From a virus (Duplodnaviria > Caudoviricetes): 34,794 bases of DNA. Positions 19,263 to 34,455 of the stretch are shown here, in pieces. Position numbers and translations under genes: made by a program. The notes under the pieces are model-generated. The model ran no database searches, was not told the origin of the DNA, and worked only from the letters and a program-made list of their open reading frames with translations. The stretch lies in the IMG/VR virus record IMGVR_UViG_3300011339_000093, positions 1 through 34,794 of that record. One strand, given 5' to 3'. Each line of letters starts with the position of its first letter. The stretch's first letter is position 1.

Positions 19263-21476
19263 TTACTGTGCCATTCCTTGAAAGGTTGATGGGGGCATCA
19301 TCTCAGGCGCTGGTGGCTGCTGCTGCTGCACAAACTGTGCGGCTTGCTGCTGGGCCAAGAGTGCCTGCTGACGCATTGCTTCACGATCAATACTTTGGGC
19401 CGCATCAATTTCGGCTGTACTGATCTGTGATTTGTACTTTAACTCAATTTCATACTTTTTGAGATACATATCCTGAGCCATCTTGTCGCGGTTTAAATCA
19501 TCATCCATGATCATTTGCTGGCGCTTTAGTTCCAGCTCTGCCGCTTTCTTTTGGATGTCGGCCTTGATCGACTCGGCCTGCACCTGGGCCAGCACCTCTT
19601 CGGGGCTTGGCTTTTGTTGTGGCGCTGGTGGCACATAGTCGGCAGGGATATTCTGGAAAAAGCTGGTTGCGTCTTTAAAGCCAGATAGCTCTACGATTTT
19701 TCGCAGGGTATTACTAAACTGCTGGGGCGTGACCAATGGGTTTGTTGGGCCAAGCTGCTGCAAGATTTGCTCTTGCTTGGCCATGATCATCATCAGCGCT
19801 TGGAGCTTCTCATTGGTGTCGCCATTGCCCAAGGCAATATTGATGTTGGCATCCATGCTGGTGTCCCAGAATCTTGGATCAATTTGCACCCACTCATTGC
19901 GCATTCGCACCATACGGGCTTTGTCCTGGTGCGTTGTGGCCAAGAACAAAATGCCCTTGAATAGTTTTTTCATGCCTTCGGCCAGAATTCTGGCAGTCAA
20001 TTCAATCCGGCCTTGGCTGGCGCTGATCGTTGCGTTGACAGCTGCTTTGGTGCTTGACTGCAATGCATCAGCGTTCAGACCCATGGCCGCCTTGCTCATG
20101 CCGGTGCGGTCTTCCTTGATCTGGTCCATGTATTCCATCATCGGGAATGCGGCCTGACCCACAAATGGAGTCGTTAATGGCTGGACCATGCCAGGCGCAC
20201 GCATACGAATGATTGCGCCTGTCTCGTTGTTCAAAACATCATCAATGTTGACTTGGCCTTCGACCACTGCCGTGCGCGGATGGATCGACTGGGCCAGACT
20301 GTCCAATGTGTTTCTGAGTATTTCCGACTTGATCTCTTGCAAGTCGCGGGTGATGTCAAAAATCGACATGGCCTCAAGTGGGCTTGTGTGCGGCTCTGGA
20401 TCGCAGGGGAAGTCAGCAAATGGAATGTAGCTGGCCGGTAGATTGCGCACCACCTTATAGCCGCCACCCATGCAGCAGACTTTTCTCAGTTCTGCAATGC
20501 CATCACCATCAAAGTCCACACGGGAATAAGCCTCGATGTAAAGCACTCTGCGCATCATCGGGTTGGCAGCGTCATTTGTGCCAAACGTGGTGGACAGTGG
20601 CTGACGCGCCAAATACTCGTCATTGCTATCTAAGTCAGTTGAAGACATATTCTCTTCAATCTCATCCTGGTCATAACCCATGGCCAACAAATCAGCCATG
20701 GTGGCCATTTGCCTGTGGGCAATGATGGTCGCGTCATCAAACGATCTGGCGCGTCTGTCCAGTAGCAATTCTTCGGGTGGCACGGCCATGATCCTGATCC
20801 GGCCATCCTTTGTGATCCGCTTGATCTGCACATCATGGATCATGGGTGCAGGCATCACCATTGGCTGGCCAGTTGTTGGATCGACAGTCGTCAGTTGCGC
20901 TTCATCAATGGCAGGGTCTGGATAAGACGTAATGATCTTGACCTCGCCACCAGGCTCTTGCATCAGCATCTCTAGCGTCTGGTCGTCTAGGCCGGTGTAC
21001 TCTTCAATCCGGACCTTCTCTTCATCTTCCCACCAGAATTTGGCAATGCCGCATTTCCTGACCAGTGCATCCTTAAAAATCGCATAGCTCGTCAAAAACC
21101 CGTTGTTGTCGTTTTGGAATACATAGTTTGCGTAGTCGGTCGCCTGCTGCGCCATCTTCACATCTTCTGGGCCACGGGGTGCAAACTCGACCACATTCTC
21201 AGAATTAAAGAAAACCCGCATCAGGCTTGGCAGCATGGCCGAGACAGTGTCCCGCACCTCCATGGCCACCACCTTGCTGTTGCCTTCGACCTCATTGCCG
21301 AATAAATCACCGCGATAGTATTCAGTCCCCTTGGCGCGTGTGGGGGACAGATCACTGTCCACATAGCTGATGGCATCGGTCAGGTCTTGCGTGACGATGC
21401 TTTGCAGCTCTGCATCATCCATTGGCTCGGTGGCTGCAATGTCGGTGGATAAATTTTCGGTGATGTTTTCAATCAT
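19263..21476 (-). CDS. Portal protein (P22 gp1-like)
   Basis: 737 aa; ATDYANYVF, FKDALVRKCG, EDRTG; long Gln-rich C-terminal barrel; synteny. Confidence 0.9.
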   Translation of the reverse strand: MIENITENLSTDIAATEPMDDAELQSIVTQDLTDAISYVDSDLSPTRAKGTEYYRGDLFGNEVEGNSKVVAMEVRDTVSAMLPSLMRVFFNSENVVEFAPRGPEDVKMAQQATDYANYVFQNDNNGFLTSYAIFKDALVRKCGIAKFWWEDEEKVRIEEYTGLDDQTLEMLMQEPGGEVKIITSYPDPAIDEAQLTTVDPTTGQPMVMPAPMIHDVQIKRITKDGRIRIMAVPPEELLLDRRARSFDDATIIAHRQMATMADLLAMGYDQDEIEENMSSTDLDSNDEYLARQPLSTTFGTNDAANPMMRRVLYIEAYSRVDFDGDGIAELRKVCCMGGGYKVVRNLPASYIPFADFPCDPEPHTSPLEAMSIFDITRDLQEIKSEILRNTLDSLAQSIHPRTAVVEGQVNIDDVLNNETGAIIRMRAPGMVQPLTTPFVGQAAFPMMEYMDQIKEDRTGMSKAAMGLNADALQSSTKAAVNATISASQGRIELTARILAEGMKKLFKGILFLATTHQDKARMVRMRNEWVQIDPRFWDTSMDANINIALGNGDTNEKLQALMMIMAKQEQILQQLGPTNPLVTPQQFSNTLRKIVELSGFKDATSFFQNIPADYVPPAPQQKPSPEEVLAQVQAESIKADIQKKAAELELKRQQMIMDDDLNRDKMAQDMYLKKYEIELKYKSQISTAEIDAAQSIDREAMRQQALLAQQQAAQFVQQQQPPAPEMMPPSTFQGMAQ

Positions 21477-23785: not shown

Positions 23786-25192
23786 TTATGCAACCCGCGA
23801 CAAGTTTCTGCGCAATGGCTGACTCCACTTGCTACTTGATGCACTGCCGTACATTCCCGCCACCGCATCACTGGCAAATGTCAGGACAAAGGCATCGGCC
23901 TTGTCAGGGCTTGGCAGGCCGCGCCTCTTGATCTCGTCTTTACCCTCAATGGCGATCTTGCCGTTTGAAGTGAATGAGTACCGCACTGTGGCCAGCTCGG
24001 CAATCAGCACATCATCCTTTGGCATCTTGCAGTCCCGTGCTTCGAGCCAAGCCCTTGCCCTGTACCAAAGCTCTGCCTTCAAGTTCCTGTAAGTTCCGCC
24101 CATGGCTGGGGACTCGGACACGTTGATGCCTCTGGCCGGCAGGCCCAGTTCTCTCAACCGGTCCACCACCCCAGCGCCTAAACCGATACTATCCACCAGT
24201 ATCTCTTTGGGCTGCTGGCTCGGTGGCAGCGCCTGGTACTCGGCCACCACCGCGCCAGTCAATTGCATCAGGTCCAAATTCTTCCAAGTCCGTATCGCTT
24301 CAGTCACCGCATTGCCTTGGCGCTTACATAGGGCTGACCGGTCACTGCCAAACCTTGCCACATCCAAGCCCCAGATCATGGGCGCATACTCACTTGGCGC
24401 CACATCCCGATTCAATGCACTTTCCAATAGGTCCATGGCAATGACAGTGTCATCATCCCCTTTGGGAAACTCACCCACCACCCTGATGCGGTAGACGTTG
24501 CTGTCTTCCCCATAGCGCATGGCCATCTCATCAATGTACTCTTTGGAGACCCTTGGACTGTCCATGCAAGAGACTTGAAACGTGGTCCACTCATCTGCCA
24601 GGCGCGTATGGGTATCGTAGAAAAATCCGCTACTTCTCACCGGATTGCCCAGCAATAGCGTCACCGCATTGTGGCCAGACATCGATCCAGCCGCTGCCTC
24701 GAACACCTGCTCTGGCACACCAGAAGCCTCATCAGCCACCAGCATCACGTTCTCTGAGTGAATCCCCTGCAAAGCCTCTGGCTGCTCTGCCCTAGATGTC
24801 CTTGCCGAGATAAACATCTCAGTGGGTGCGGCATTGAATTCAATCCTCTCTTGCTTGACAGTCAAGAGCTGCTGCAAGGGCAATGGCATTGAGTTGATCC
24901 ACCTCTTTAGCTCTGCAAACATCGCGTCATAAAGCTGGCTGCTCGTTGGTGCAGTCACCACCACCTTGACAGGACTCCTGGTCATAAAGTACCAGAGCAT
25001 GGCCCAGCTGCTTGCCGTACTCTTTCCCACCCCGTGGCCACTCCTGACACTTATCTTCCTATCACCCCGTGCAATAGCCTTCAAAAACTCAATCTGCCAC
25101 ACATCAGGATCAACCCCCAACACCTCTTGAACAAACAAGACAGGATCAGGCTGATACCGGTCCACCCACTGACTGAAGACATTTTCTTTCAT
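23786..25192 (-). CDS. terL: Terminase large subunit
   Basis: Walker A SGHGVGKS, Walker B LVADEASG, LLGNP coupling motif, nuclease GLDVARFGSD and SPDKADA. Confidence 0.95.
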   Translation of the reverse strand: MKENVFSQWVDRYQPDPVLFVQEVLGVDPDVWQIEFLKAIARGDRKISVRSGHGVGKSTASSWAMLWYFMTRSPVKVVVTAPTSSQLYDAMFAELKRWINSMPLPLQQLLTVKQERIEFNAAPTEMFISARTSRAEQPEALQGIHSENVMLVADEASGVPEQVFEAAAGSMSGHNAVTLLLGNPVRSSGFFYDTHTRLADEWTTFQVSCMDSPRVSKEYIDEMAMRYGEDSNVYRIRVVGEFPKGDDDTVIAMDLLESALNRDVAPSEYAPMIWGLDVARFGSDRSALCKRQGNAVTEAIRTWKNLDLMQLTGAVVAEYQALPPSQQPKEILVDSIGLGAGVVDRLRELGLPARGINVSESPAMGGTYRNLKAELWYRARAWLEARDCKMPKDDVLIAELATVRYSFTSNGKIAIEGKDEIKRRGLPSPDKADAFVLTFASDAVAGMYGSASSSKWSQPLRRNLSRVA

Positions 25193-25392: not shown

Positions 25393-25586
25393 TTCATCCT
25401 CGCTTGCTTTAAGTTCCTGCCCGTCTCCCGATCGGTCCAGCATGATGCACATATCCACCTAGATTGATTCATCTGCACCCCACCCTCTGGCGGCTTCATC
25501 TCTTCACACTTATTGCACAGCTTGAGCTTGTGGCCATGCACGTTGCCATTGAGCCTGATGTGGTTATTTACAAAATTACTCTTCAT
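25389..25586 (-). CDS. Small zinc-finger protein
   Basis: MKSNFVNN...CNKC...CASC; ATGA overlaps. Confidence 0.65.
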   Translation of the reverse strand: MKSNFVNNHIRLNGNVHGHKLKLCNKCEEMKPPEGGVQMNQSRWICASCWTDRETGRNLKQARMK

Positions 25587-25795
25587 GTTCTCGCTGGACA
25601 AGTTCTGCCCTGATTGCAATTTCCATGGCATGGTGGACATTTCTTATCAATGAAATCATGTTCATTCACCCATGTCCTCAGTACCAGCCCACAGGCCGGA
25701 CCAGGTGGCTGCTCTTTTGGTTTGTCTAAATACCTATAAACTGCCCAAGCAATAATAAGTACATTCACGGCAATGATTAAATAGACAATAATCAC
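25583..25795 (-). CDS. Small TM protein with Cys-rich tail
   Basis: N-terminal TM helix; CPPCHGNCNQGRTCP. Confidence 0.65.
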   Translation of the reverse strand: MIIVYLIIAVNVLIIAWAVYRYLDKPKEQPPGPACGLVLRTWVNEHDFIDKKCPPCHGNCNQGRTCPART

Positions 25796-25953
25796 TGTAT
25801 TCTCTTAATTTCATTATTTGGGTGGATTAACCACTTATCACCCAAATACCTTAATGCTTTAATATATTGTTTCTGATTATGCCTATTAGTGCTTCTAGGC
25901 ACATAATCAACATTAAATAACTGCCTGACTTTAGTTAATAAGGTGATATTCAT
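25792..25953 (-). CDS. Hypothetical protein (53 aa)
   Basis: Manual read: MNITLLTKVRQLFNVDYVPRSTNRHNQKQYIKALRYLGDKWLIHPNNEIKRIQ; overlaps at both ends. Confidence 0.65.
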   Translation of the reverse strand: MNITLLTKVRQLFNVDYVPRSTNRHNQKQYIKALRYLGDKWLIHPNNEIKRIQ

Positions 25954-26114
25954 ATTATCCCCACAATCTTGTTAACCTCAACCCATGTGTGCCACACAAT
26001 CGTACTGTCTGGCTTGCCCAAGGCGCAGAAGACTTTATTGTCCTTGGTCTCATCAGTGTCTAAGACGATCCACTCCTGGTCATCAATTGTGACTGTCGCT
26101 TGCTTCGTTTGCAT
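25950..26114 (-). CDS. Hypothetical protein (54 aa)
   Basis: Manual read: MQTKQATVTIDDQEWIVLDTDETKDNKVFCALGKPDSTIVWHTWVEVNKIVGII; first gene after the predicted promoter. Confidence 0.6.
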   Translation of the reverse strand: MQTKQATVTIDDQEWIVLDTDETKDNKVFCALGKPDSTIVWHTWVEVNKIVGII

Positions 26115-26145
26115 AGGGTTTTAGTGTTGAGTTGGTGGAGATTGA

Positions 26146-26175
26146 ATTGTGATCGGTTTTTGCGCTTTATGTCAA
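26146..26175 (-). promoter_or_regulatory. Sigma70-like promoter for the small-ORF/terL/structural operon
   Basis: TTGACA (26175-26170), 18 nt, CACAAT (26151-26146). Confidence 0.55.
26160..26175. promoter_or_regulatory. Operator-like motif copy 1 (TTGCGCTTTATGTCAA)
   Basis: Near-identical copies at 27290, 32413 and 33244. Confidence 0.6.
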
Positions 26176-26296
26176 CTACCTCAAAATTTTTTTAGAAAAA
26201 TTTTTTTTGTAGGTGTTTAGTGCCGCCACAGTCGCCCCCGCCAATCCGGCCAAGGGGGGGGTCTCGGCCACCGACCGCCAGCCGGCCACCGCTGGG

Positions 26297-26397
26297 TTAT
26301 CCACGGATTTTGGCCAACCTTATCCACAGATTCCTGTGCATAACTAGGCTTGTAATACTTTGATGCACTTAATTCTGTGGATATCTACTTATCCACT
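26297..26397. promoter_or_regulatory. DnaA-box cluster I (five boxes)
   Basis: TTATCCACG 26297, TTATCCACA 26320, TGTGCATAA 26335, TGTGGATAT 26376, TTATCCACT 26389; consensus TTWTNCACA. Confidence 0.7.
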
Positions 26398-26422
26398 TAA
26401 CATAATGGTCATTGTATTAAGT
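26395..26422 (-). other. dif: dif-like XerC/XerD recombination site
   Basis: Minus strand ACTTAATACAA-TGACCA-TTATGTTAAGT; 11-6-11 geometry; right arm matches the E. coli XerD arm TTATGTTAAAT at 10/11. Confidence 0.7.
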
Positions 26423-26429
26423 GACTGAA

Positions 26430-26951
26430 TCATTTGGTATTCATATCTGTCAAAGTGTCTACCGATACGATGCTGCGCTTGCGCAGGGCATCGAGCGCCA
26501 TGCTTCCAAGGTCGATGTTGACCAGGGGCTGCTGCTTGTCTCCGTACTCATCTGGCGCTTGCTTAGAGGCCAGCCAGCGCCTTGTGTCCACTCTCAGCTT
26601 GGCCACTTGCGCGTCTTGAGGCGTGGCAGCGTCTGCAATTTCAATGGTTTCCTCTGCTAAACTTCGGCCACCACGCGCCCGCGCACGCGCAAGGGCGGAA
26701 GCCCTCGCCTCGCCTCCTCTGTCGATCCAGTCATAAAAGCCTGTATGACTCACACCCAACGACCGAGCCAAGCTGAGAATGGTTTCTCCTTGTGAGAGTC
26801 TGTCTAGCATGGCAATTTCGCCACCGGCAGCGTGAATCTTCTTGTTGACATCGGTGGCCTCTTTGCGTGCAAGAGCTGCTTGTTCTTTGAGTCCCATCTG
26901 TCTGGCGGCAATGTTGTCTGCCAGCTCACTCATGGTTTGTGCTTTGGCCAT
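26430..26951 (-). CDS. terS: Terminase small subunit (Sf6 gp1-like)
   Basis: HTH (LARSLGVSHTGFYDW), ARAR..LAEETIEIAD, AKLRVDTRRWLASK..P..YGDK. Confidence 0.85.
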   Translation of the reverse strand: MAKAQTMSELADNIAARQMGLKEQAALARKEATDVNKKIHAAGGEIAMLDRLSQGETILSLARSLGVSHTGFYDWIDRGGEARASALARARARGGRSLAEETIEIADAATPQDAQVAKLRVDTRRWLASKQAPDEYGDKQQPLVNIDLGSMALDALRKRSIVSVDTLTDMNTK

Positions 26952-27312
26952 TCAAGTATTCCTCAATTGTTTTGATTGCATCGGCTGCTGATCTGGCGAC
27001 CACTGACCGATATCCTTTTGCGTTTAACTGCAAACCTACTACGCTTTGCTTGGCTGAGACCACACCGGCCTTGGTCTTCATCTCCACAAATAACGCATGA
27101 AACCCGTTTTTAGGCTCTAAGACGCATAAATCCGGCATCCCTGCTAAAACCCCTTCAGAATGCAATCTGACGCGCTCTAAAGGGCTTCTATCGCCTCCGT
27201 TGGGTATTGCTGCAATGATGATGTCTGGATAAAACGCTCTGAAGTGCTGGACCACTTTGACTTGGTCAATGTGTTCAATGCTTTTTCTTTTGCGCTTTAA
27301 GTCAACCACCAT
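26926..27312 (-). CDS. VRR-NUC domain nuclease (resolvase-like)
   Basis: EHIDQ, AIPNGG, GVLAGMPDL, FVEMKTKAG..S..Q; start at ATG 27312. Confidence 0.85.
   Translation of the reverse strand: MVVDLKRKRKSIEHIDQVKVVQHFRAFYPDIIIAAIPNGGDRSPLERVRLHSEGVLAGMPDLCVLEPKNGFHALFVEMKTKAGVVSAKQSVVGLQLNAKGYRSVVARSAADAIKTIEEYLNGQSTNHE
27290..27305. promoter_or_regulatory. Operator-like motif copy 2 (TTGCGCTTTAAGTCAA)
   Basis: 15/16 identical to copy 1; lies in the first codons of the VRR-NUC gene. Confidence 0.5.
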
Positions 27313-27641
27313 GCTTCGGATTCTACTGCCGAGGCTTTGGTCTGGAACAAATGGCATCGGTGTTTGATGTCGGTCGGGAATGCAGCCAGTCCCGTTTGGC
27401 TGCACTGGTGTTCGGTCCATGTGATGGTTGCCCATCCATTCCTAATCTTTGCCTGGTCAAACATCCACTGAAGTGGTTTTGCGTTGACCTTTCTGTGCCT
27501 TTCCATCTGCTCGGCTGGCATGGACTGTCGCTGCTCCACTTCTACCGCCTTACTGCACTGATGGCAGAAAACGCGCTCATCTTCCACGAATTTCTCTAAT
27601 TGTGGATAACCTGTGGATAACTGCTCAACTTGTTGGACCAT
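27297..27641 (-). CDS. Hypothetical Cys/His protein
   Basis: GGAGAG RBS; CHQC...C...HRC; 5' end overlaps two DnaA boxes. Confidence 0.65.
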   Translation of the reverse strand: MVQQVEQLSTGYPQLEKFVEDERVFCHQCSKAVEVEQRQSMPAEQMERHRKVNAKPLQWMFDQAKIRNGWATITWTEHQCSQTGLAAFPTDIKHRCHLFQTKASAVESEAWWLT

Positions 27642-27849
27642 CGTTTCTCTCCAAAAACAGTAAAAAGTAAACCGGTATGGACAAAGGAAATCTACCGCTT
27701 TACCGCTTTACTTTTCACCATCCCAAAACTGACCAGATTGGCCTGTGGATAAGTGGGTCTAAAGACCCCCACTTATACCAACAGACCTGCCTTTATCTAA
27801 ACCGGTATACCGGTTTACTACCGGTTTACTACCGGTTTACCGGTTTACT
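27601..27849. other. Putative replication origin: three perfect DnaA boxes, a hairpin and ACCGGT repeats
   Basis: TGTGGATAA at 27601, 27612 and 27744; imperfect inverted repeat at about 27749-27776; repeats at 27801-27849; immediately downstream of the primase-helicase. Confidence 0.6.
27801..27849. repeat. Iteron-like tandem repeats of ACCGGT(TTACT), five copies
   Basis: ACCGGTAT ACCGGTTTACT ACCGGTTTACT ACCGGTTT ACCGGTTTACT. Confidence 0.85.
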
Positions 27850-30004
27850 TTATTTGAACCCATCCAGAGCTTGACTGGTCCAATGCAAAGCGCTGGAAAA
27901 TGGCGCTGCTGACAGCCCGTCTTGCATAGCTTTGGTCAGATGCTGGCACGGCCTGATAGATATCAGCCCACTCCAGCTGATGCATTGTTGCCATCTCCTT
28001 TGGCACTGATGGCCGCCCTGACCCTCTGCGCATGATGACCGCGCCTTTGGCGTTGATGATGGACTGGACAAAGTTGCAGGCCGCATCACACGCATCTTGT
28101 ATTTGTTGCTGTCTTTTATCGTTCTGCCGGTCGTTGGCTGCCTGCCTTCGGTCTTCTTCCGAGGACATGGCTGGAACGACAAGCAGCACCATCTGCTCTT
28201 GGATATCCCCATCTTCATCAAGGACAGTGTCAGCAAAGACATCTGATTGAAACTTGATTTCTCTGAAGTTGGGCTGGTAGCGGGTTTTGACCAGGCGCAT
28301 ATAACGGGTCTTGGTCTCGTCTTCAAACAGAACACCGGTCAATGTGGCATCACCGGTGAATGCGCTTGCTCCACGGGCTGTGGCATCTGAGTCTGACTTG
28401 CTGATGGTCTTGTTGGTGTGTGTGATGATGCAGACTGGCGTGTCCAGTTGGATGTAGATGGTCTGCTTTAAGGCTGCAATATATGCACCAACTTCGGAGT
28501 TGTCATTCTCATTGTCAATATCCATTGTGGCATTGGCGGTGTCTAGAACCAATAATGGTCTTACATTATCAATCGTGTGATTTATTACATTATGCGCAAG
28601 CATGAGTAAATCCTTCACATTAGATCGCTTGGCATCGATTATCACAAACCAATCTGATAATGATTGAGCATTTATGCCGTAATGTCTTGAGTATCCAGTT
28701 AATGTCCTTTCAACCTGGTCCGAGTCTTCAGTGACAATAATTGTTTTGCGTTTTTTGGTGGCAGTGAGTTCACAGTCCTTGGCCTGCAAGCCTGCCATGA
28801 CCATGCACAGACTGATGACCGCAGTGGTCTTGCCAATGCCAGGCTGACCGGCCAGCACCATGAAACTGTGCGCCCAGAAACCTTTGACCATGTAACGGAT
28901 GGGTTTGATCTGGCCAATGGTCAATGTGCGCTCTGGCCAGCCTTTGGCCTGTTCTGCCTCTTCCACGGCCACTGGTGCATCCCCTTTGGCCTGACTGATC
29001 ACTGCTGCAAAGTCTTCAACGGCTGACTTGCGCTCAGTCTGTTTGGTGGGCGCTTCCCACCCGCAATCTTTGGCGTACTTAAATAGAGTGCCAAGACCCA
29101 CTCCCTTGCCCTGGTGAAAACTCTTCCAGTGGACTTCAATGTCTTTTGTACCGGCAAACTTCTGGCCAGCCATGGACCATGTCATCCATGGGCCAAGTCC
29201 TTGCTCCCCAAACTCTGTATGCAGCGCTTGGCCCAGCTCAATCCACTGCTCATAGTCGCAATCTGGGGAAATGTGGTGCAAAGCCTTGATGGCGCGATCA
29301 AGGTCGCTGTCATCCAGTCTTGAGCCTAATTGGGTGAAGTCAAATGATTGTGAGGGTGATGCTGATGGCTTTGGCTCTTGGAGCTGGTGCTGCTCGATGA
29401 TGCCCCAGTCTTGGAGCAAGGCATAAAGGTCCACGGCCTCTTGGAATTCACCGACCACGGCATTGCCAGAAAGTAGCACCGACTTTCCAGCACTGTTTGG
29501 CAGGCCAAATACTTCAAGCTCTTGGCCGCCACCCAGTTTGTACTTGGGCAAGACTTGGTCAGCTTCTTTGGGTGGTGAGACCCATAAGAAGACATGACGG
29601 CCACGGCCTGAGACAGAGACCTCGGTCAGCATCTTGTTTTGTTTGACGTACTTGGCCATGCGCTGGATGGCCACATTGGTGGGTCCTGATGCGTGCTTCA
29701 TATCGACATCAAGACAAACCAGATAGTTTCCTGATGCGGAAATGATGGGGCGCTGCTGCACTAGGCCAATGTACTGGCCATGAGGGCATGACTCCATGGC
29801 CCAGATGTCTTCAGCGTTGTATAGGTCTGTCGGGTCAGTATCCCGTGCAACACCTTGGCCAGATCGCTTGTAGGGGATTTTCTTACTGCCCTGTAGGGCA
29901 AAGGTGCAGAAGACTGCATCAGGCGCGACAGTGCCTATTTTGCAGGCGACAGACTGCGACTGACTGAATGTATCTGGCAGGGGTGTTTCAGTTATAGTGG
30001 GCAC
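27845..30004 (-). CDS. Primase-polymerase / PriCT-2 / RepA-like AAA helicase fusion
   Basis: CLDVD and SVSGRGRH (AEP), DYEQWIELGQAL..W.SF (PriCT-2), GQPGIGKT, LVLDT, HTNK, RGAS. Likely start GTG 30004 with AAAGGA 6 nt upstream. Confidence 0.85.
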   Translation of the reverse strand: MPTITETPLPDTFSQSQSVACKIGTVAPDAVFCTFALQGSKKIPYKRSGQGVARDTDPTDLYNAEDIWAMESCPHGQYIGLVQQRPIISASGNYLVCLDVDMKHASGPTNVAIQRMAKYVKQNKMLTEVSVSGRGRHVFLWVSPPKEADQVLPKYKLGGGQELEVFGLPNSAGKSVLLSGNAVVGEFQEAVDLYALLQDWGIIEQHQLQEPKPSASPSQSFDFTQLGSRLDDSDLDRAIKALHHISPDCDYEQWIELGQALHTEFGEQGLGPWMTWSMAGQKFAGTKDIEVHWKSFHQGKGVGLGTLFKYAKDCGWEAPTKQTERKSAVEDFAAVISQAKGDAPVAVEEAEQAKGWPERTLTIGQIKPIRYMVKGFWAHSFMVLAGQPGIGKTTAVISLCMVMAGLQAKDCELTATKKRKTIIVTEDSDQVERTLTGYSRHYGINAQSLSDWFVIIDAKRSNVKDLLMLAHNVINHTIDNVRPLLVLDTANATMDIDNENDNSEVGAYIAALKQTIYIQLDTPVCIITHTNKTISKSDSDATARGASAFTGDATLTGVLFEDETKTRYMRLVKTRYQPNFREIKFQSDVFADTVLDEDGDIQEQMVLLVVPAMSSEEDRRQAANDRQNDKRQQQIQDACDAACNFVQSIINAKGAVIMRRGSGRPSVPKEMATMHQLEWADIYQAVPASDQSYARRAVSSAIFQRFALDQSSSGWVQIK

Positions 30005-30098
30005 TGAAATTCCTTTAGTTAGGGGTTTCATTTGGATAGTTGCCATGAGATTGACTTTTGACCTGGTAGTGTTTACGCACTATCAGGTCTTTTCTTTT
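30005..30098 (+). ncRNA. Putative antisense (counter-transcribed) RNA against the primase translation start
   Basis: -10 TATAGT at 29993; hairpin 30005-30030 and terminator 30060-30098, both with G-U pairs that form only on the + strand. Confidence 0.55.
30060..30098 (+). terminator. Rho-independent terminator oriented opposite to the surrounding genes
   Basis: GACCTGGTAGTG-TTTACG-CACTATCAGGTC-TTTTCTTTT. Confidence 0.75.
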
Positions 30099-30113
30099 GG
30101 CAGGGATTGAATT

Positions 30114-31121
30114 CTATTCCTTGGCTTTCACAAGACTTGGTGCAGCGACCTTCTCACCGACAAGGTCTTCGCTCACTTCGACACCAAGTTTCAAGACAGC
30201 ACTGGGGCTTTTGAGTTCCCACACCTTCAAGTTGTCTTTGAATGCTTCCATGACCAGCGCCTCATCTTTCCAAAATTTGGTCTTGCGGCCTGCCCGCATG
30301 GCCCAGCCAGTGATGGCTTTGCCTTCAATGATCTGAGCCTTGGCAGCGGCCTGCACGGCATCGGCCCATGCGGCCACCAGAGCAGCGTTGTCTAGCATCT
30401 CAGGGGTGACAGTCGTATCAGGCTTGAAATCGTTTCTGGCAGCGATCTGGACCTTCTCACGCATACTGGGGCAGATGGTCTTGGCCTTGCAATACCGGCA
30501 GGCATCTGGACTTGGGTTTGTTGGGGCATCTGAAGTCAGCGCCAACTCGGCAGCTTCTTTCAAGCGCCTTCCATGCAGCTCAAGTCGATTGCCAGACACT
30601 GTCCACTGACTGTGGCCAACTCGGGGCTGGTAGATGTGCATGGTGCAAATGATGCGCTCTGGCGCTTTGAGCTGGCGCATCGCACCAAGGGCATAGGTCA
30701 GCAGCTGCTTGTTGTCTTCGGCCTCTACGGCCACCCTGCCGGTCTTCAGATCAATGACATGAAGATGATCACCATCGACCAGGACTGCATCAGCAGTGCC
30801 ACCCAGTGCTGGGTGCAGGGACTTGAGACCTTCGTCTAGGTTGACTTCGATGAGCTTCTTGCGCGGATTCTGGACCAGAGTGTTGACAAAATCTGCATAG
30901 CCTTGGGCCATTGCAATGTGGTCAGGATCAGTTCCGGCTGGTATCTCACCATTGCGCAGAATGATCTCAGACAGTTCATGGATCGCTGTGCCAATGGCAG
31001 CGGCTTCACCGGCTGCCTCGTAAGGCATGAGGGATTCAAGCCGGTATGAGCCTGGGCAAGACATGAAGCGATCTGTTCTGGATGCTGAGAGTCGGGCGTG
31101 TTTTCGGGTTTCATGTTGCAT
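30114..31121 (-). CDS. PD-(D/E)XK Cas4-like exonuclease (DUF2800-like)
   Basis: HARLSAS..CPGS, GTAIH, GGTADA, IDLKTG, QLLTYALG, CRYC...CP. Confidence 0.85.
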   Translation of the reverse strand: MQHETRKHARLSASRTDRFMSCPGSYRLESLMPYEAAGEAAAIGTAIHELSEIILRNGEIPAGTDPDHIAMAQGYADFVNTLVQNPRKKLIEVNLDEGLKSLHPALGGTADAVLVDGDHLHVIDLKTGRVAVEAEDNKQLLTYALGAMRQLKAPERIICTMHIYQPRVGHSQWTVSGNRLELHGRRLKEAAELALTSDAPTNPSPDACRYCKAKTICPSMREKVQIAARNDFKPDTTVTPEMLDNAALVAAWADAVQAAAKAQIIEGKAITGWAMRAGRKTKFWKDEALVMEAFKDNLKVWELKSPSAVLKLGVEVSEDLVGEKVAAPSLVKAKE

Positions 31122-31134
31122 GGTTTCTCCTGGG

Positions 31135-32361
31135 TTAAATGATTTGGTTGACGATATTCAGTTTCTTCAAGACCTTAGCCAAGACTGTATGGTCCAAGCT
31201 GGCCTTGATGGTCAATATGTAAATGACGGGGGGAATGCCTGATTTGTTGATATTTTCAACACGGCTTGAGGCTTGCTCTAAGGCGCTTGTAGACCAAGTG
31301 CATTCGACAAAGACAATGGTGTCGGCAGCCGATAAGTCCACACCTTCAGACATACTTTGGATATTCCCGATGATGCACTTGGTCTGGCCAGACTGAAAGT
31401 CGGCAATGGCCTTGTCGCGCTTGGCCCTTGATGTATCACCCACCACGATCACGGGCTTGTGGACAAATAGCAGCTTCTCCAGCTCGGCCACCACATCCTT
31501 GTGGTGCGCAAAGACCACCACTGGCTCGTTGGATTGCAAGAGGTCATCGATGAATTCACTGGCGGCCTTGACCTTGCGCATACCGGCCTCGCGCATGATC
31601 TCGGCCAGACCCTCAAAGGCGAGCAAGGCATTGGGGTTTGCCACCAAGGCATCGGCATCAAAACTTTGCTCGCGTTTGTCGTTGGGTAGGTCAAACGTGA
31701 TCAGGCTGACTTGTGGCTCTTTGTAGTCTTTGAAAATGTCTTCTTTTTTGCGTCTCAGGACATGGGGCAGCATGAGCGCCTTGAGTTCAACCAGGTTAGA
31801 AGCCCCACTTGTGTCCAAGCCCCATGGCGCGTTCCACATCTTGGCGTAGCGCACTGCAAAGTCAAACCAGCCACCTCTGTAGATGCCAAGGCCGTGCAGT
31901 ATTGGCCACAGTTCAATGGGCCGATTTGGAATTGGCGTGCCACTGAGCGCATAGACACACTCAATCTTCTTCATGGCCAGCATGGCGGCCTTGGTCCTTT
32001 GGGCTTTTGGATTCTTAATCCTGTGGCACTCGTCTAGCACTAGCGTGTTATATCTGTCCACATTCGTTTGTGCATATTGCAAAACGTCATAGTTAATGAT
32101 GGTCACATCAACTGAATTTACCTCTGACGCGCCCTTCTTTCCATTGACCACATGGACTGAGACGTTGGGCGCGAGCTTACTGAAAGCCGCCTCCCAGACT
32201 GTCTTGGCAATGGCGGGACAAACTATCAAGGCCGGTAGGTTTTCAAGTGCAGCAGCTGCTGTGGGTAGCGTCTTACCAACACGGGGCTGGTCGGCCAGTA
32301 TGGCCCTGCGCCTGGACAGCAAGAAGAGCTTGGCCTCTTGCTGATGGGGGAATAGTTGCAT
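31135..32361 (-). CDS. SNF2-family helicase
   Basis: LADQPRVGKT, LDECH, LSGTPIPN, EGVDL, QASSR. Confidence 0.9.
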   Translation of the reverse strand: MQLFPHQQEAKLFLLSRRRAILADQPRVGKTLPTAAAALENLPALIVCPAIAKTVWEAAFSKLAPNVSVHVVNGKKGASEVNSVDVTIINYDVLQYAQTNVDRYNTLVLDECHRIKNPKAQRTKAAMLAMKKIECVYALSGTPIPNRPIELWPILHGLGIYRGGWFDFAVRYAKMWNAPWGLDTSGASNLVELKALMLPHVLRRKKEDIFKDYKEPQVSLITFDLPNDKREQSFDADALVANPNALLAFEGLAEIMREAGMRKVKAASEFIDDLLQSNEPVVVFAHHKDVVAELEKLLFVHKPVIVVGDTSRAKRDKAIADFQSGQTKCIIGNIQSMSEGVDLSAADTIVFVECTWSTSALEQASSRVENINKSGIPPVIYILTIKASLDHTVLAKVLKKLNIVNQII

Positions 32362-32398
32362 TTCGCTGTTTCCGTTTCTGTCGTTTTAACTTGCAGGC

Positions 32399-32428
32399 AT
32401 CTTAACTGAGATTTGTGCTAAAGTGCAA
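32399..32428. promoter_or_regulatory. Overlapping divergent promoters (helicase/SSB) containing operator-like copy 3
   Basis: Minus strand TTGCAC-18-TAAGAT; plus strand extended -10 TGcTAAAGT; motif TTGTGCTAAAGTGCAA at 32413-32428. Confidence 0.5.
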
Positions 32429-32480
32429 TTTCTGTTTAATCGCAGAAACGTAAAAACCTCAAACCTTAAAAGGATCAAAA

Positions 32481-33050
32481 ATGTCTACTCGCGTTGTAAC
32501 CGGTAAAGTTCGCTTCTCTTATTTCTCAGCACTGACTGCTCGCAAGAATGAGATGAACGGCAAAGAAGAGTTCTCAACTCAGGTGCTTGTCCCAAAGACA
32601 GACACCGAGACTGTGAACCAATTGAAAGCGGCAGCCAAGGCCGCATTGACCGCCAAGTTTGGGGACAAGATTCCCAAAACTGTTCGCAATCCCTTGCGTG
32701 ATGGCGACACTGAAATGAAATCCGATGGCTCACCTCTTGGCCCAGAGTACGCTGGCCATTATTTCTTTAACACCAAAAGCACCAACAAGCCTGGTGCAGT
32801 GGATGCCCATGGCCACGACATCATTGGCAGTGCTGACATAGTCTCTGGTGATTTTGGCCGTGTCAGTCTGAATGCCTATGCCTATGACCAGGCAGGGAAT
32901 AAGGGTGTGTCGTATGGTTTGAACAACATCATGCTCTTGGCCAAGGGTGACTCGCTTGGTGGTGCAAAACCATCAGCGGCCAGTGACTTTGGCGTGGTGG
33001 CAGGCAGTAGCCCTGCGCCAGCTGCTGCTTCAGTCGCAGTGGACTGGTAA
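32481..33050 (+). CDS. ssb: Single-stranded DNA-binding protein (DUF2815, T7 gp2.5-like)
   Basis: VRFSY, PLRDGD, GNKGVSYGLNNI, C-terminal DW; AAGGA RBS. Confidence 0.85.
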   Translation: MSTRVVTGKVRFSYFSALTARKNEMNGKEEFSTQVLVPKTDTETVNQLKAAAKAALTAKFGDKIPKTVRNPLRDGDTEMKSDGSPLGPEYAGHYFFNTKSTNKPGAVDAHGHDIIGSADIVSGDFGRVSLNAYAYDQAGNKGVSYGLNNIMLLAKGDSLGGAKPSAASDFGVVAGSSPAPAAASVAVDW

Positions 33051-33230
33051 TTGGTCGATCAGTTTTTCAAGCGCCAAGTGCAATTGATTGACTGATGTCC
33101 AGAGTGGCTCAACAGTCCCAGACAGCCACCGGCTCACCTGGGACTGCTGAATGCCAGCCTCATTGCACACGGCAGCCATGGTGATCTTGTGGGCCTTGGC
33201 ATTTGCCTTGATATCGTGAATTGATTGCAT
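33030..33230 (-). CDS. Small XRE/Cro-like HTH regulator
   Basis: MAAVCNEAGIQQSQVSRWLSGTVEP. Confidence 0.85.
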   Translation of the reverse strand: MQSIHDIKANAKAHKITMAAVCNEAGIQQSQVSRWLSGTVEPLWTSVNQLHLALEKLIDQLPVHCD

Positions 33231-33236
33231 CAGCGC

Positions 33237-33310
33237 ATTCTAATTGCGCTTTATGTATAAAAACAACACATAAAAATAATTGTTTGCACATATTTCTTTT
33301 AGGGCATAAT
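33237..33310. promoter_or_regulatory. Divergent control region with operator-like copy 4 (TTGCGCTTTATGTATA, 33244-33259)
   Basis: Leftward -10 TAGAAT (33242-33237); rightward TTTGCA-16-CATAAT (33283-33310); AT-rich. Confidence 0.55.
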
Positions 33311-33363
33311 TCGTTACACCAGCACAAATTTAACTGGGTAACGAAATAAACGAAAGAAACAAA

Positions 33364-33564
33364 ATGTCACGTCAAATGCATTTAAACAAAGGCGGTATTG
33401 GTTTTGCATCAAAAACCGCTTGTGGCCGCAATATGTTGCGCACTCCTATGAGTACCAATTGGGAAAACTTCAAGATGGAACCGCCTGCTTATCGCTGCAT
33501 CAAATGTGTTTCAAGCAAACAATTTGAATTCAACACAAAAATGGATTCCCGCAAAACTGCATAA
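33364..33564 (+). CDS. Small early protein with H..C..CxxC pattern
   Basis: 66 aa; MH...TACGR...CIKC; first gene after the rightward promoter. Confidence 0.65.
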   Translation: MSRQMHLNKGGIGFASKTACGRNMLRTPMSTNWENFKMEPPAYRCIKCVSSKQFEFNTKMDSRKTA

Positions 33565-33570
33565 ACCCAC

Positions 33571-33584
33571 GGGGCTTCGGCCCC
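33571..33584 (+). other. cUUCGg tetraloop hairpin without U-tract
   Basis: GGGGC-TTCG-GCCCC in an intergenic gap. Confidence 0.7.
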
Positions 33585-33601
33585 ATTAACGAAAGAAACC
33601 G

Positions 33602-33697
33602 ATGAAACCGCAAACCGAAACCCTCTTGGATTATTTGACCGCCATTGCCATTGGCGTTGGCATGGCTGCACTCTTGGTGGCATGGTGGTCAGCATGA
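33602..33697 (+). CDS. 31-aa single-TM peptide
   Basis: Manual read: MKPQTETLLDYLTAIAIGVGMAALLVAWWSA; ATGA overlap with the next gene. Confidence 0.65.
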   Translation: MKPQTETLLDYLTAIAIGVGMAALLVAWWSA

Positions 33698-34455
33698 AGA
33701 CTGTAGACAAACCACCACTTTGCACGCTGGATGAAATTGCAGACTTCATTGGAGTTGGCCGCACAACCTTGCAACACCATTCGACTTGGGACAAGCAAAA
33801 CTTCCCAAAGCCAAAGCTAATAACCGGCAAAACAAAGTATTACGATGAAGCTAAAGTTATTGCTTGGTATACAAAAAGGCAAGAAAAGCATCGCAAGCAA
33901 GTTTTGGCCGAGCGAAAAAGCCGAATGCCAATTAACAATGCTGAAGACTTAATTGCTTTTCGTATTTTTGAAACCAGAACAAATCTAAAACTTACCCGTA
34001 AAAAACTGGGTGAGATGATTGGTGTGACTGAATATGCAATTGCTCATTGGGAAACATTTTCAGACATAAAGACAAGAACCCAGCCCAAACTTGAGAATTT
34101 CATAAAGCTGGCTGAAGTTACTGGTGCTGATTTAAATTATTTGATGGCCAAAGATAAACCGGAATTGCTGACCATGACTTATTCACAACTACCTGTCTGC
34201 CCCAAGGGCCTCTATGAGTTTGCCTGCTCAGTAGAAGACGTTGATCTGGTCTGCTTCCTAGAATACAGCCCAGAAGAGAAAGGCTACAGAGACTCTTATG
34301 GCGCGCCCTATGAGCCTGATATTGAAGAGTGCATGACCCTCAATAACGCATACATCGCTGGCACTGATGTGGACATTGCCCACATGATTTTGCAGTCCAT
34401 GGTGGACCACATTGAAGTGTCTGCGCTGGAGAAGTTTAAGGATAACGCACCATGA
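33694..34455 (+). CDS. AlpA/Xis-like HTH + XRE HTH + acidic domain fusion protein
   Basis: LDEIADFIGVGRTTL...FPKP (AlpA-like); LTRKKLGEMIGVTEYAIAHWE...LAEVTGADLNYL (XRE); acidic C-terminal ~90 aa. Confidence 0.7.
   Translation: MKTVDKPPLCTLDEIADFIGVGRTTLQHHSTWDKQNFPKPKLITGKTKYYDEAKVIAWYTKRQEKHRKQVLAERKSRMPINNAEDLIAFRIFETRTNLKLTRKKLGEMIGVTEYAIAHWETFSDIKTRTQPKLENFIKLAEVTGADLNYLMAKDKPELLTMTYSQLPVCPKGLYEFACSVEDVDLVCFLEYSPEEKGYRDSYGAPYEPDIEECMTLNNAYIAGTDVDIAHMILQSMVDHIEVSALEKFKDNAP

Follow-up and report, generated by a model that had tools for sequence, protein, structure and literature searches.

A dif-like Xer site with DnaA-consensus boxes at the probable genome end of a tailed phage, and its replacement by a serine recombinase gene in sister phages

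The window analyzed here is a single virus contig of 34,794 bases with both ends open (IMG/VR record IMGVR_UViG_3300011339_000093), which carries the genes of a tailed phage. Directly after the gene of the terminase small subunit (terS), the window contains a 28-bp dif-like site for XerC and XerD, recombinases of the host, accompanied by boxes of the DnaA consensus at fixed spacing. This dif cassette lies, with good probability, at the genome end, and in sister phages its place is taken by a serine recombinase gene. The original prediction had combined the dif-like site, the DnaA boxes, an array of ACCGGT repeats behind a primase-helicase gene, and an antisense unit over the ribosome site of that gene into a single maintenance system. 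Each of the four elements is real, conserved, and in excess of chance, yet they belong to two separate modules, an iteron replicon with its antisense unit and the dif cassette; the probable terminal location of dif and its replacement by the recombinase had been missed.

The dif cassette and the recombinase at the same position

The cassette and the gene before it comprise three features:

26430..26951, minus strand: terS, terminase small subunit, Sf6-like (PF20901, phrog_1482)
26395..26422, minus strand: dif-like Xer site of 28 bp, with the XerC arm at 26422-26412, the centre TGACCA, and the XerD arm at 26405-26395
26297..26384, minus strand: DnaA-consensus boxes on the XerD side of dif, at 26376 (+10), 26335 (+51), 26320 (inverted, +66), and 26297 (inverted, +89)

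The 28-mer, which reads ACTTAATACAA TGACCA TTATGTTAAGT on the minus strand, is the best-scoring site of the whole window, and none of 200 dinucleotide shuffles of the window produced an equal. The predicted site thus holds up, with an 11-6-11 layout and with conservation in relatives. Its arms agree with the chromosomal dif of Comamonadaceae at 11 of 11 XerD positions and 10 of 11 XerC positions. A scan of species genomes with the phage arms and the centre left free gave 106 matches, 91 of which had the centre TGTATA, with the arms ACTT(T/G/A)ATAC(G/A)A and TTATGTTAAGT; among the 80 of the 106 matches that were listed, most belonged to Rhodoferax, Polaromonas, Limnohabitans, and Burkholderiales. 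The Rhodoferax ferrireducens dif in a table of PMC2731167 is the same chromosomal site with the centre TGTATA. By its sequence, the phage site is a true mimic of the Comamonadaceae dif, and because the arms match, the host of the phage is likely a comamonad.

Of the 80 closest loci, 78 carry the site immediately behind terS; eight types of centre occur among them, but not TGTATA. In the remaining two loci, the recombinase gene or its start occupies that place. A scan of viral contigs yielded 120 dif loci from an estimated ~490 stretches. The host centre occurs in none of the 120, and many of these loci adjoin terS in either orientation, with TerL (terminase large subunit) identities of 27-96%. 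Over 163 distinct cassettes the centre is constrained (G at position 13 in 147, C at 16 in 152, A at 17 in 154), few centre types are common to many phage lineages, and the first three host centre bases on the XerC side are kept in 10 cassettes (centre TGTCCA). A look-alike of the XerD arm at 26167-26177 was rejected as an Xer site, as it has no XerC arm and coincides with a -35 box.

With a DnaA box defined by at most one mismatch to TTATCCACA, the window has the eight boxes previously reported in two clusters (26297, 26320, 26335, 26376, and 26389; 27601, 27612, and 27744), four of which are perfect. The best 1.5-kb stretch holds 9 boxes against a mean of 2.0 and a maximum of 4 in 200 shuffles. 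Boxes 27601 and 27612 lie inside a coding frame, and box 26389 overlaps the XerD arm. The +10, +51, and inverted +66 boxes are present in 77 of 77 close loci; when the 163 cassettes were grouped into 33 clusters, the +10 box was found in 17 clusters and the +51 box in 12. The fifth base of the cassette boxes is variable, as in the DnaA consensus quoted in bioRxiv 866236. The +10 box is absent from all 94 chromosomal dif sites, and in a cassette lineage with the centre CGGGCA, the boxes number one or two and are arranged differently. We propose that DnaA is likely recruited to the cassette boxes, where it would stand in for FtsK as an architectural or an activating partner.

In the complete relative MW202879, a serine recombinase gene follows terS and there is no dif. 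A recombinase-based scan gave 54 loci, or 55 together with MW202879. A dif-like site occurs in none of the 55, no box is present in the 330 bases before the recombinase gene in 54, and terS lies just upstream in 49, the other six beginning too near the gene; none of five whole recombinase genomes matches the dif pattern. Among 137 distinct TerL rows, 104 are associated with dif, 31 with the recombinase, 2 with neither, and none with both. In a midpoint-rooted FastTree of 39 reduced TerL rows, the recombinase rows fall in three places, one of them nested among dif rows, which implies a few evolutionary events, not 55. Given this mutual exclusion at one position, the site and the gene look like alternative alleles for one job.

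The recombinase keeps an intact catalytic motif. Its structure was taken from the fold based on a 56-row alignment (predicted local distance difference test score, pLDDT, 86.5), the single-sequence fold reaching a pLDDT of only 44. The model matches the catalytic and first DNA-binding parts of Bxb1 (template modeling score, TM, 0.69), as well as whole resolvases. Large serine integrases carry a C-terminal zinc-ribbon/coiled-coil half. This half is missing from the recombinase in the model and among the best full-length matches, which are 215-229 residues long (no search for longer forms was made); the protein ends at ~220 residues and aligns to about the first 230 of the 486 Bxb1 residues. PHROG places it under "integrase". 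In recombinase loci (L406-L458), the cassette is replaced by a pair of conserved palindromes that lie between terS and the recombinase gene, ~190-250 bases ahead of the latter, and are candidate targets of the enzyme.

Dif-like sites also occur in other settings. When other dif types were sought in a second scan, 120 loci were obtained; 26 of the 80 that have full flanks contain a terminase gene within 3 kb (no background rate for terminase proximity was measured), and the box layout is missing there. Gamma- and alpha-type sites (L463-L542) stand beside terS in other lineages, some upstream of it, and most often no more than 200 bases from a C or G tract. Phage C72C1 (OQ984150) has a dif-like site with the centre CGTCCA at 19397-19424 (L460), between terS and a C-tract, with no boxes and no annotated integrase; a literature search for this phage found no paper. 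MW202483 carries repeated GTTTACAT units together with a dif-like palindrome ~1 kb before terL (L586:10500-10600). Several bacterial contigs (L155, L191, and L207; also L152, L189, L225, and L246) combine host-type arms with non-chromosomal centres; in three of them, the site is within 3 kb of a PriCT-2 primase-like gene, and these may be satellites or islands with a dif of their own. A 3.9-kb contig in a Burkholderiaceae metagenome-assembled genome (MAG) with terS, dif, and a box (L172) is probably a phage fragment and not a chromosomal dif.

Position at the genome end

Three features bear on the genome end:

26215..26448, strand not assigned: probable core of a direct terminal repeat, at about double contig depth
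26185..26262, minus strand: C-tract, G+C hairpin, and A-tracts, an end motif common with phage phiM5; predicted repeat edge near 26219
26146..26175, minus strand: promoter of the sigma-70 type (TTGACA-18-CACAAT), directed toward small genes and terL, and probably the first one within the left genome end

Among cultured phages, phiM5 has the closest TerL (52% identity; portal 45%, capsid 50%). The phiM5 record (MF074189) has an annotated 357-bp direct terminal repeat just before terL, and a C-tract with a G+C hairpin starts 42 nt before the end of this repeat; the available text of PMC10783043 contains nothing on the phiM5 ends. In the window, the corresponding motif is located at 26261, and we therefore predict the repeat edge near 26219. 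The motif is also present in the recombinase lineage, it follows dif by 150-203 nt in 70 of 71 rows with TerL identity of at least 85%, and the cassette stays between terS and the C-tract in both orientations.

Contig depth points to the same region. In run X1, an exact 234-base contig (26215-26448) has a depth of 77.9, compared with 34.8 and 42.8 for the flanking contigs, and the bin 26220-26879 is the deepest in all four runs at 100% identity; these runs belong to one study, are represented by contigs only, and may include the source of the window. Exact sharing of the 26215-26448 region is at most ~70 nt in any of 78 spanning relatives. From the phiM5 comparison and these depths, we consider it rather probable that the dif site is at the genome end.

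A TTGACA..CATAAT promoter is found at the same place in the recombinase lineage, before the recombinase gene. The recombinase is thus the first gene after the first promoter inside the predicted end, which is the position that an entry function would need. A 23-base repeat (91%) at 26158-26180 and 27288-27310 includes a -35-like hexamer on the minus strand, and the two copies are possibly co-regulated promoters.

Iteron origin, antisense RNA, and gene content

The second module lies behind and over the primase-helicase gene (rep):

27845..30004, minus strand: rep, primase-helicase with PriCT-2 and an AAA_25 helicase domain; likely start GTG at 30004 behind AAAGGA
27601..27849, minus strand: predicted replication origin, with five and three iterons flanking a palindrome with DnaA box 27744, then two boxes
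29993..29998, plus strand: -10 hexamer of a putative antisense promoter, in codons 3-4 of rep; TAnnnT in 76 of 77 rows
30004..30098, plus strand: putative counter-transcribed RNA, with a stem-loop over the ribosome site at 30005-30030 and a terminator at 30060-30098

The five ACCGGT repeats that had been noted after rep were found at 27801, 27809, 27820, 27831, and 27839, against a shuffle maximum of 2 per 60 bp; on the minus strand the iteron unit is GTAAA(C/G)CGGTA. A second array of three related repeats (27671-27707) had been overlooked. The 112 distinct Rep ends fall into 10 classes by their C-terminal helix, and each class has its own repeat word, such as GTAAACCGGTA or GTAAAGCGGTA in the class of the window and CTAATGCGGAA in the next class. 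The iterons therefore co-vary with the Rep C-terminus. DnaA boxes also follow the Rep classes: five classes (105 rows) have nearly always two or three in the origin, one further row has two, and four classes (6 rows) have none. The Rep C-terminal domain has no sequence match in the PDB, and its look-alikes in the Atlas are without names.

The hairpin and terminator of the predicted antisense unit are supported, and its promoter only in part. A hairpin with a T-tail occupies 30060-30098 on the plus strand, and the predicted RNA (30004-30098) has two stems with a z-score of -4.8. In the terminator stem, 7 of 13 pairs show changes on both sides over 36 distinct rows, a result reached by none of 500 shuffles and with far lower values in slid controls. 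The first stem barely varies and thus lends no covariation support. The -10 hexamer occurs as TAnnnT, in five variants, in 76 of 77 rows, which are related to one another and leave out six loci lacking the AAAGGA/GTG start signal; free codon choice would give one in three. The -35 is not conserved, and a consensus promoter scan of the window did not list this promoter. Rfam has no family match in 25500-33700. We consider an antisense RNA over the rep ribosome site probable from these patterns. In three of five scanned loci, all three with other Rep classes, an int-alpA RNA (RF02996) lies upstream of rep instead of the hairpin (L011:6878-6942, L039:6829-6893, and L046:6860-6924); the origins of these loci have no DnaA boxes.

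The iteron origin and the antisense RNA are already known kinds of element, and by sequence they look like parts of a host-dependent, regulated replicon. The window thus holds both virion genes and a predicted autonomous replicon (Rep plus origin). Further features near the two modules are listed below:

23786..25192, minus strand: terL, terminase large subunit, 52% identical to phiM5 TerL
25792..25953, minus strand: 53-residue early gene that, within the close group, goes with the dif allele (present in 80 of 80 dif rows whose TerL identity is at least 85% and in 0 of 37 recombinase rows)
26926..27435, minus strand: VRR-NUC nuclease, Holliday-junction-resolvase-like (PF08774, phrog_5702); the true start is probably downstream of the listed one
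27297..27641, minus strand: small zinc-ribbon-like gene (PF14369 match weak, below the cut-off), whose 5' end holds DnaA boxes 27601 and 27612

The small early genes at 25792-25953 and 25950-26114 are present in 80 of 80 and 71 of 80 close dif loci, respectively, and are absent from all 37 recombinase loci, whose lineage carries an early-gene block of its own. The 53-residue gene was rejected as a general Xer activator, since it was not found in five distant dif genomes and has no Atlas match. A double helix-turn-helix gene (33682-34455) was rejected as an XafT-like activator because its match to the Xer activator family VC1465 (E 8e-4) is far below the cut-off and the open reading frame (ORF) of relatives is much shorter; the gene has low cover in the four runs examined for depth.

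The phage head is of the SU10 type, with profile matches of capsid and portal to PF17236 and PF23899, and by these profiles it is not P22-like as had been proposed. Other window genes encode a DUF2800 exonuclease, an SNF2 helicase, and an Enc34-type single-stranded DNA-binding protein (SSB). Five closed relatives measure 34.5-37.3 kb, from which we infer that the contig is near-complete, with little missing. The reported absence of an integrase, ParAB, and a DNA polymerase was borne out by profile scans of 29 and 16 window proteins and extends to the closed relatives. The tyrosine integrase family PF00589 was found in none of 30 related records, 25 of them at least 90% complete, and none of the five closed relatives has DNA polymerase A, a ParA-type ATPase, or a serine recombinase/resolvase (PF00239). 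A Pfam scan of 79 non-core ORFs (at least 90 residues) from ten relatives detected no integrase, ParA, polymerase, resolvase, partition, or addiction gene. The original prediction is supported in part: the elements are conserved, the site mimics the host dif, the closed relatives are without integrase, serine recombinase, ParA, and family-A polymerase, and the origin and antisense unit have the look of a replicon that is regulated and depends on the host.

Proposed function, alternatives, and related systems

We lean slightly toward the reading that two terminal dif copies let host XerCD circularize and monomerize the genome, as Cre/loxP does in phage P1. The dif site and its boxes, likely inside a short direct terminal repeat, would be present once at each end of the virion DNA. 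Host XerC and XerD would likely join both copies to convert the injected DNA into a monomeric circle and would resolve multimers during replication. The altered centre, being unlike that of the host, would likely permit recombination between phage copies and not between phage and chromosome. Replication of this circle would then start at the iteron origin and involve the phage primase-helicase and host polymerase, with the antisense RNA likely limiting the supply of the initiator. XerD normally needs FtsK (PMC9226527), and FtsK-orienting polar sequences (KOPS) are few (0-3 per genome) and show no bias. We therefore consider that either XerC may exchange first, with replication or the VRR-NUC nuclease finishing the reaction, or DnaA on the phased boxes may help.

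Several points weigh against this reading. The known accessory sequences of the plasmid sites cer and psi lie on the other side of the core, and the lack of KOPS bias leaves the activation of XerD unexplained. Accessory-site control at cer and psi depends on supercoiled DNA (PMC5357621). As to the genome end, (i) the evidence for the terminal repeat consists of a terminase of 52% identity and of the contig depth of four runs that belong to one study; (ii) sequence shared by co-occurring strains could double the depth, and the depth of the region in run X5 is raised far beyond twofold; (iii) among relatives, no clustering of contig ends was seen at the predicted repeat edge; and (iv) TerS is Sf6-like and has no detectable similarity to the phiM5 ORF at that place, so that a nearby pac start and headful packaging are possible. 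With a pac start, dif would still lie in the redundancy of the first headfuls. The exclusivity of dif and recombinase depends on few evolutionary events, and the adjoining early genes change as one block at this junction. Gamma- and alpha-type dif sites beside terminases are mostly without boxes. Dif is absent from phiM5, MW202711, and MW202496, and five further records of a second terminase group contain no convincing site; thus, the site is not required by all such phages. The cultured phages DU_RP_II, RpY1, AF, and DSL-LC05 of the second group likewise have no dif in the stretches examined.

Searches for integrated or extrachromosomal copies gave the following results. Host-centre junction patterns, which fit 28 of 80 and 73 of 80 close relatives, had no match in 241 million metagenome records, and the cassette or junction pattern had none in 401 family genomes; a junction expected from XerC-first exchange (phage centre with host XerC arm) was looked for in the 401 family genomes only and was absent from them. 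The capsid has no match in 127 genomes of the genus Limnohabitans and matches of only 34-47% in 6 of the 401 family genomes, and five distant capsid-bearing stretches have no dif. Rep matches are limited to the helicase domain (32-38%, in 9 of 271 genomes). A collection of 72,556 plasmids yielded no full-length Rep match and no meaningful match to the dif cassette. The host genomes searched are mostly incomplete MAGs, so the absence of the phage from them is weak evidence.

These results bear on the idea that the phage is chiefly a phage-plasmid, a copy-controlled circular episome in which dif mainly serves dimer resolution and inheritance. The iteron origin with DnaA boxes, the antisense unit over the rep ribosome site (with int-alpA RNA upstream of rep in other Rep classes), the lack of an integrase in closed relatives, and the alternation of dif with a resolvase-like gene, as is typical of plasmids, all fit this idea. 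However, none of the five closed relatives has ParA, the 79 non-core ORFs of ten relatives include no partition or addiction gene, and neither the searched host genomes nor the 72,556 plasmids hold a close capsid or Rep match, an absence that is weak; moreover, a dimer-resolution site has no reason to be at the packaging end. We therefore regard a mainly plasmid life as rather unlikely, although it is compatible with Xer circularization as an added lifestyle. The DnaA boxes and iterons, previously taken as plasmid hallmarks, do not decide the matter: Staphylococcus aureus pathogenicity islands (SaPIs) have iteron origins and T5 has DnaA boxes in its end repeat, so neither marks a plasmid state, and DnaA boxes at such a place imply no episome. 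A lasting episome is conceivable, since it is in a persistent state that antisense control of rep would be of most use.

Integration at the host dif, which had also been suggested, would make the site an attP like that of integrative mobile elements that exploit Xer (IMEXs) and the sister recombinase an integrase. The perfect XerD and near-perfect XerC arms, the PHROG assignment of the recombinase, and the 10 of 163 cassettes that keep three XerC-side host bases, as VGJ-type integration needs (PMC5357621), agree with this, and an integrase and dif would also be mutually exclusive; phiM5 and MW202496 each carry an integrase and lack dif. Yet the host centre is found in none of the 120 viral matches or 78 close loci, most centres differ on both sides, no prophage or junction was found in the 241 million metagenome records or 401 family genomes, and the recombinase is without the C-terminal half of large serine integrases. 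Integration is thus quite improbable, slightly more so than a docking or decoy role, itself improbable, in which bound DnaA and XerCD protect the end, tether it to the membrane, pace injection, or titrate host proteins with no strand exchange. The lack of KOPS or a known activator would suit such a role, as would T5-like phages, which keep eight ordered DnaA boxes in the left terminal repeat with a proposed role in injection (bioRxiv 866236), but the exact 11-6-11 geometry, the constrained centre, and the catalytically intact recombinase as the alternative allele indicate strand exchange. Least probable is that the site serves as a hotspot of recombination, at which co-infecting phages exchange early-gene and replication modules. 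Early genes do change as a block here and few centre types are common to many lineages; however, the benefit of module swapping would hardly keep the site in 78 of 80 relatives, and linkage decay across dif, tried as a test of recombination, was confounded by terS indels, shows nothing, and was not used.

Circularization by XerCD would resemble that of phage P1. In P1, loxP lies near the packaging end, is duplicated in virion DNA, and is used by Cre to circularize the genome and resolve dimers. The window dif is likewise near the packaging end and is proposed to be duplicated; the enzyme would be host XerC/XerD (in sister phages, a short serine recombinase), the window phage has no partition system, and short fixed repeats probably replace headful redundancy. 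With cer and psi, the cassette has in common an XerCD core, a non-chromosomal centre, and flanking sites for host proteins at fixed spacing (PMC5357621, PMC9226527). The accessory motifs seen here are DnaA-consensus boxes, whereas cer and psi use ArgR, ArcA, and PepA (ArgR/ArcA boxes were not searched for), and the boxes span ~100 bp on the XerD side, in a tailed phage and next to terS. CTX, VGJ, TLC, and GGI are also elements with a dif mimic and no integrase, but their homology to the host dif centre covers one side of it at least or spans it, and they do occur as integrated copies (PMC5357621); VGJ-type integration needs XerC-side homology and TLC-type homology across the centre. The centre of the window type mostly differs on both sides (TGACCA versus TGTATA), and no integrated copy was found.

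PhiM5 (MF074189) resembles the window phage in TerL, portal, capsid, the C-tract and hairpin before terL, and its SSB, exonuclease, and SNF2 helicase genes, but it encodes an integrase and DNA polymerase A, and its repeat holds neither dif nor a cluster of boxes. The Pri-Rep/ori of SaPIs also has short iterons in two groups directly after a primase-helicase whose C-terminal domain sets specificity (PMC9371898); its origin centre is an AT-rich stretch, compared with a palindrome with a DnaA box here, the window helicase is AAA_25/RepA-like, and the SaPI C-terminus is a winged helix, with the window Rep C-terminus having no PDB sequence match. The iss region of T5 likewise places ordered DnaA boxes in a phage terminal repeat, with other spacing and a 10 kb repeat; its authors propose injection control, and their paper never mentions "Xer" (bioRxiv 10.1101/866236). 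A literature search in which subscription journals were largely missing found no description of Xer sites in tailed-phage terminal repeats or of DnaA boxes as Xer accessory sites. By analogy, the cassette likely works like Cre/loxP with plasmid-style accessory sites, and neither an IMEX nor a phage-plasmid is established; what the present analysis adds is the recombinase swap and the box geometry.

A more general picture is doubtful at present: a widespread class of tailed phages in which XerCD circularizes the linear genome at dif in short repeats, DnaA acts as an accessory factor that frees Xer from FtsK, the truncated serine recombinase is a self-sufficient alternative allele, and the circle, under antisense control and with neither integrase nor partition genes, can persist as an episome. 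For phages with short terminal repeats and no polymerase, the route from linear injected DNA to a replicating form is poorly known, and a 28-bp host site that exchanges one-for-one with a recombinase gene is a small and direct test system. If DnaA is the accessory factor, the initiation and termination machines of the chromosome would be linked in one phage cassette. Dif-like sites in phages should thus not be taken as attachment sites by default, and xerCD may be a host factor for abundant freshwater phages.

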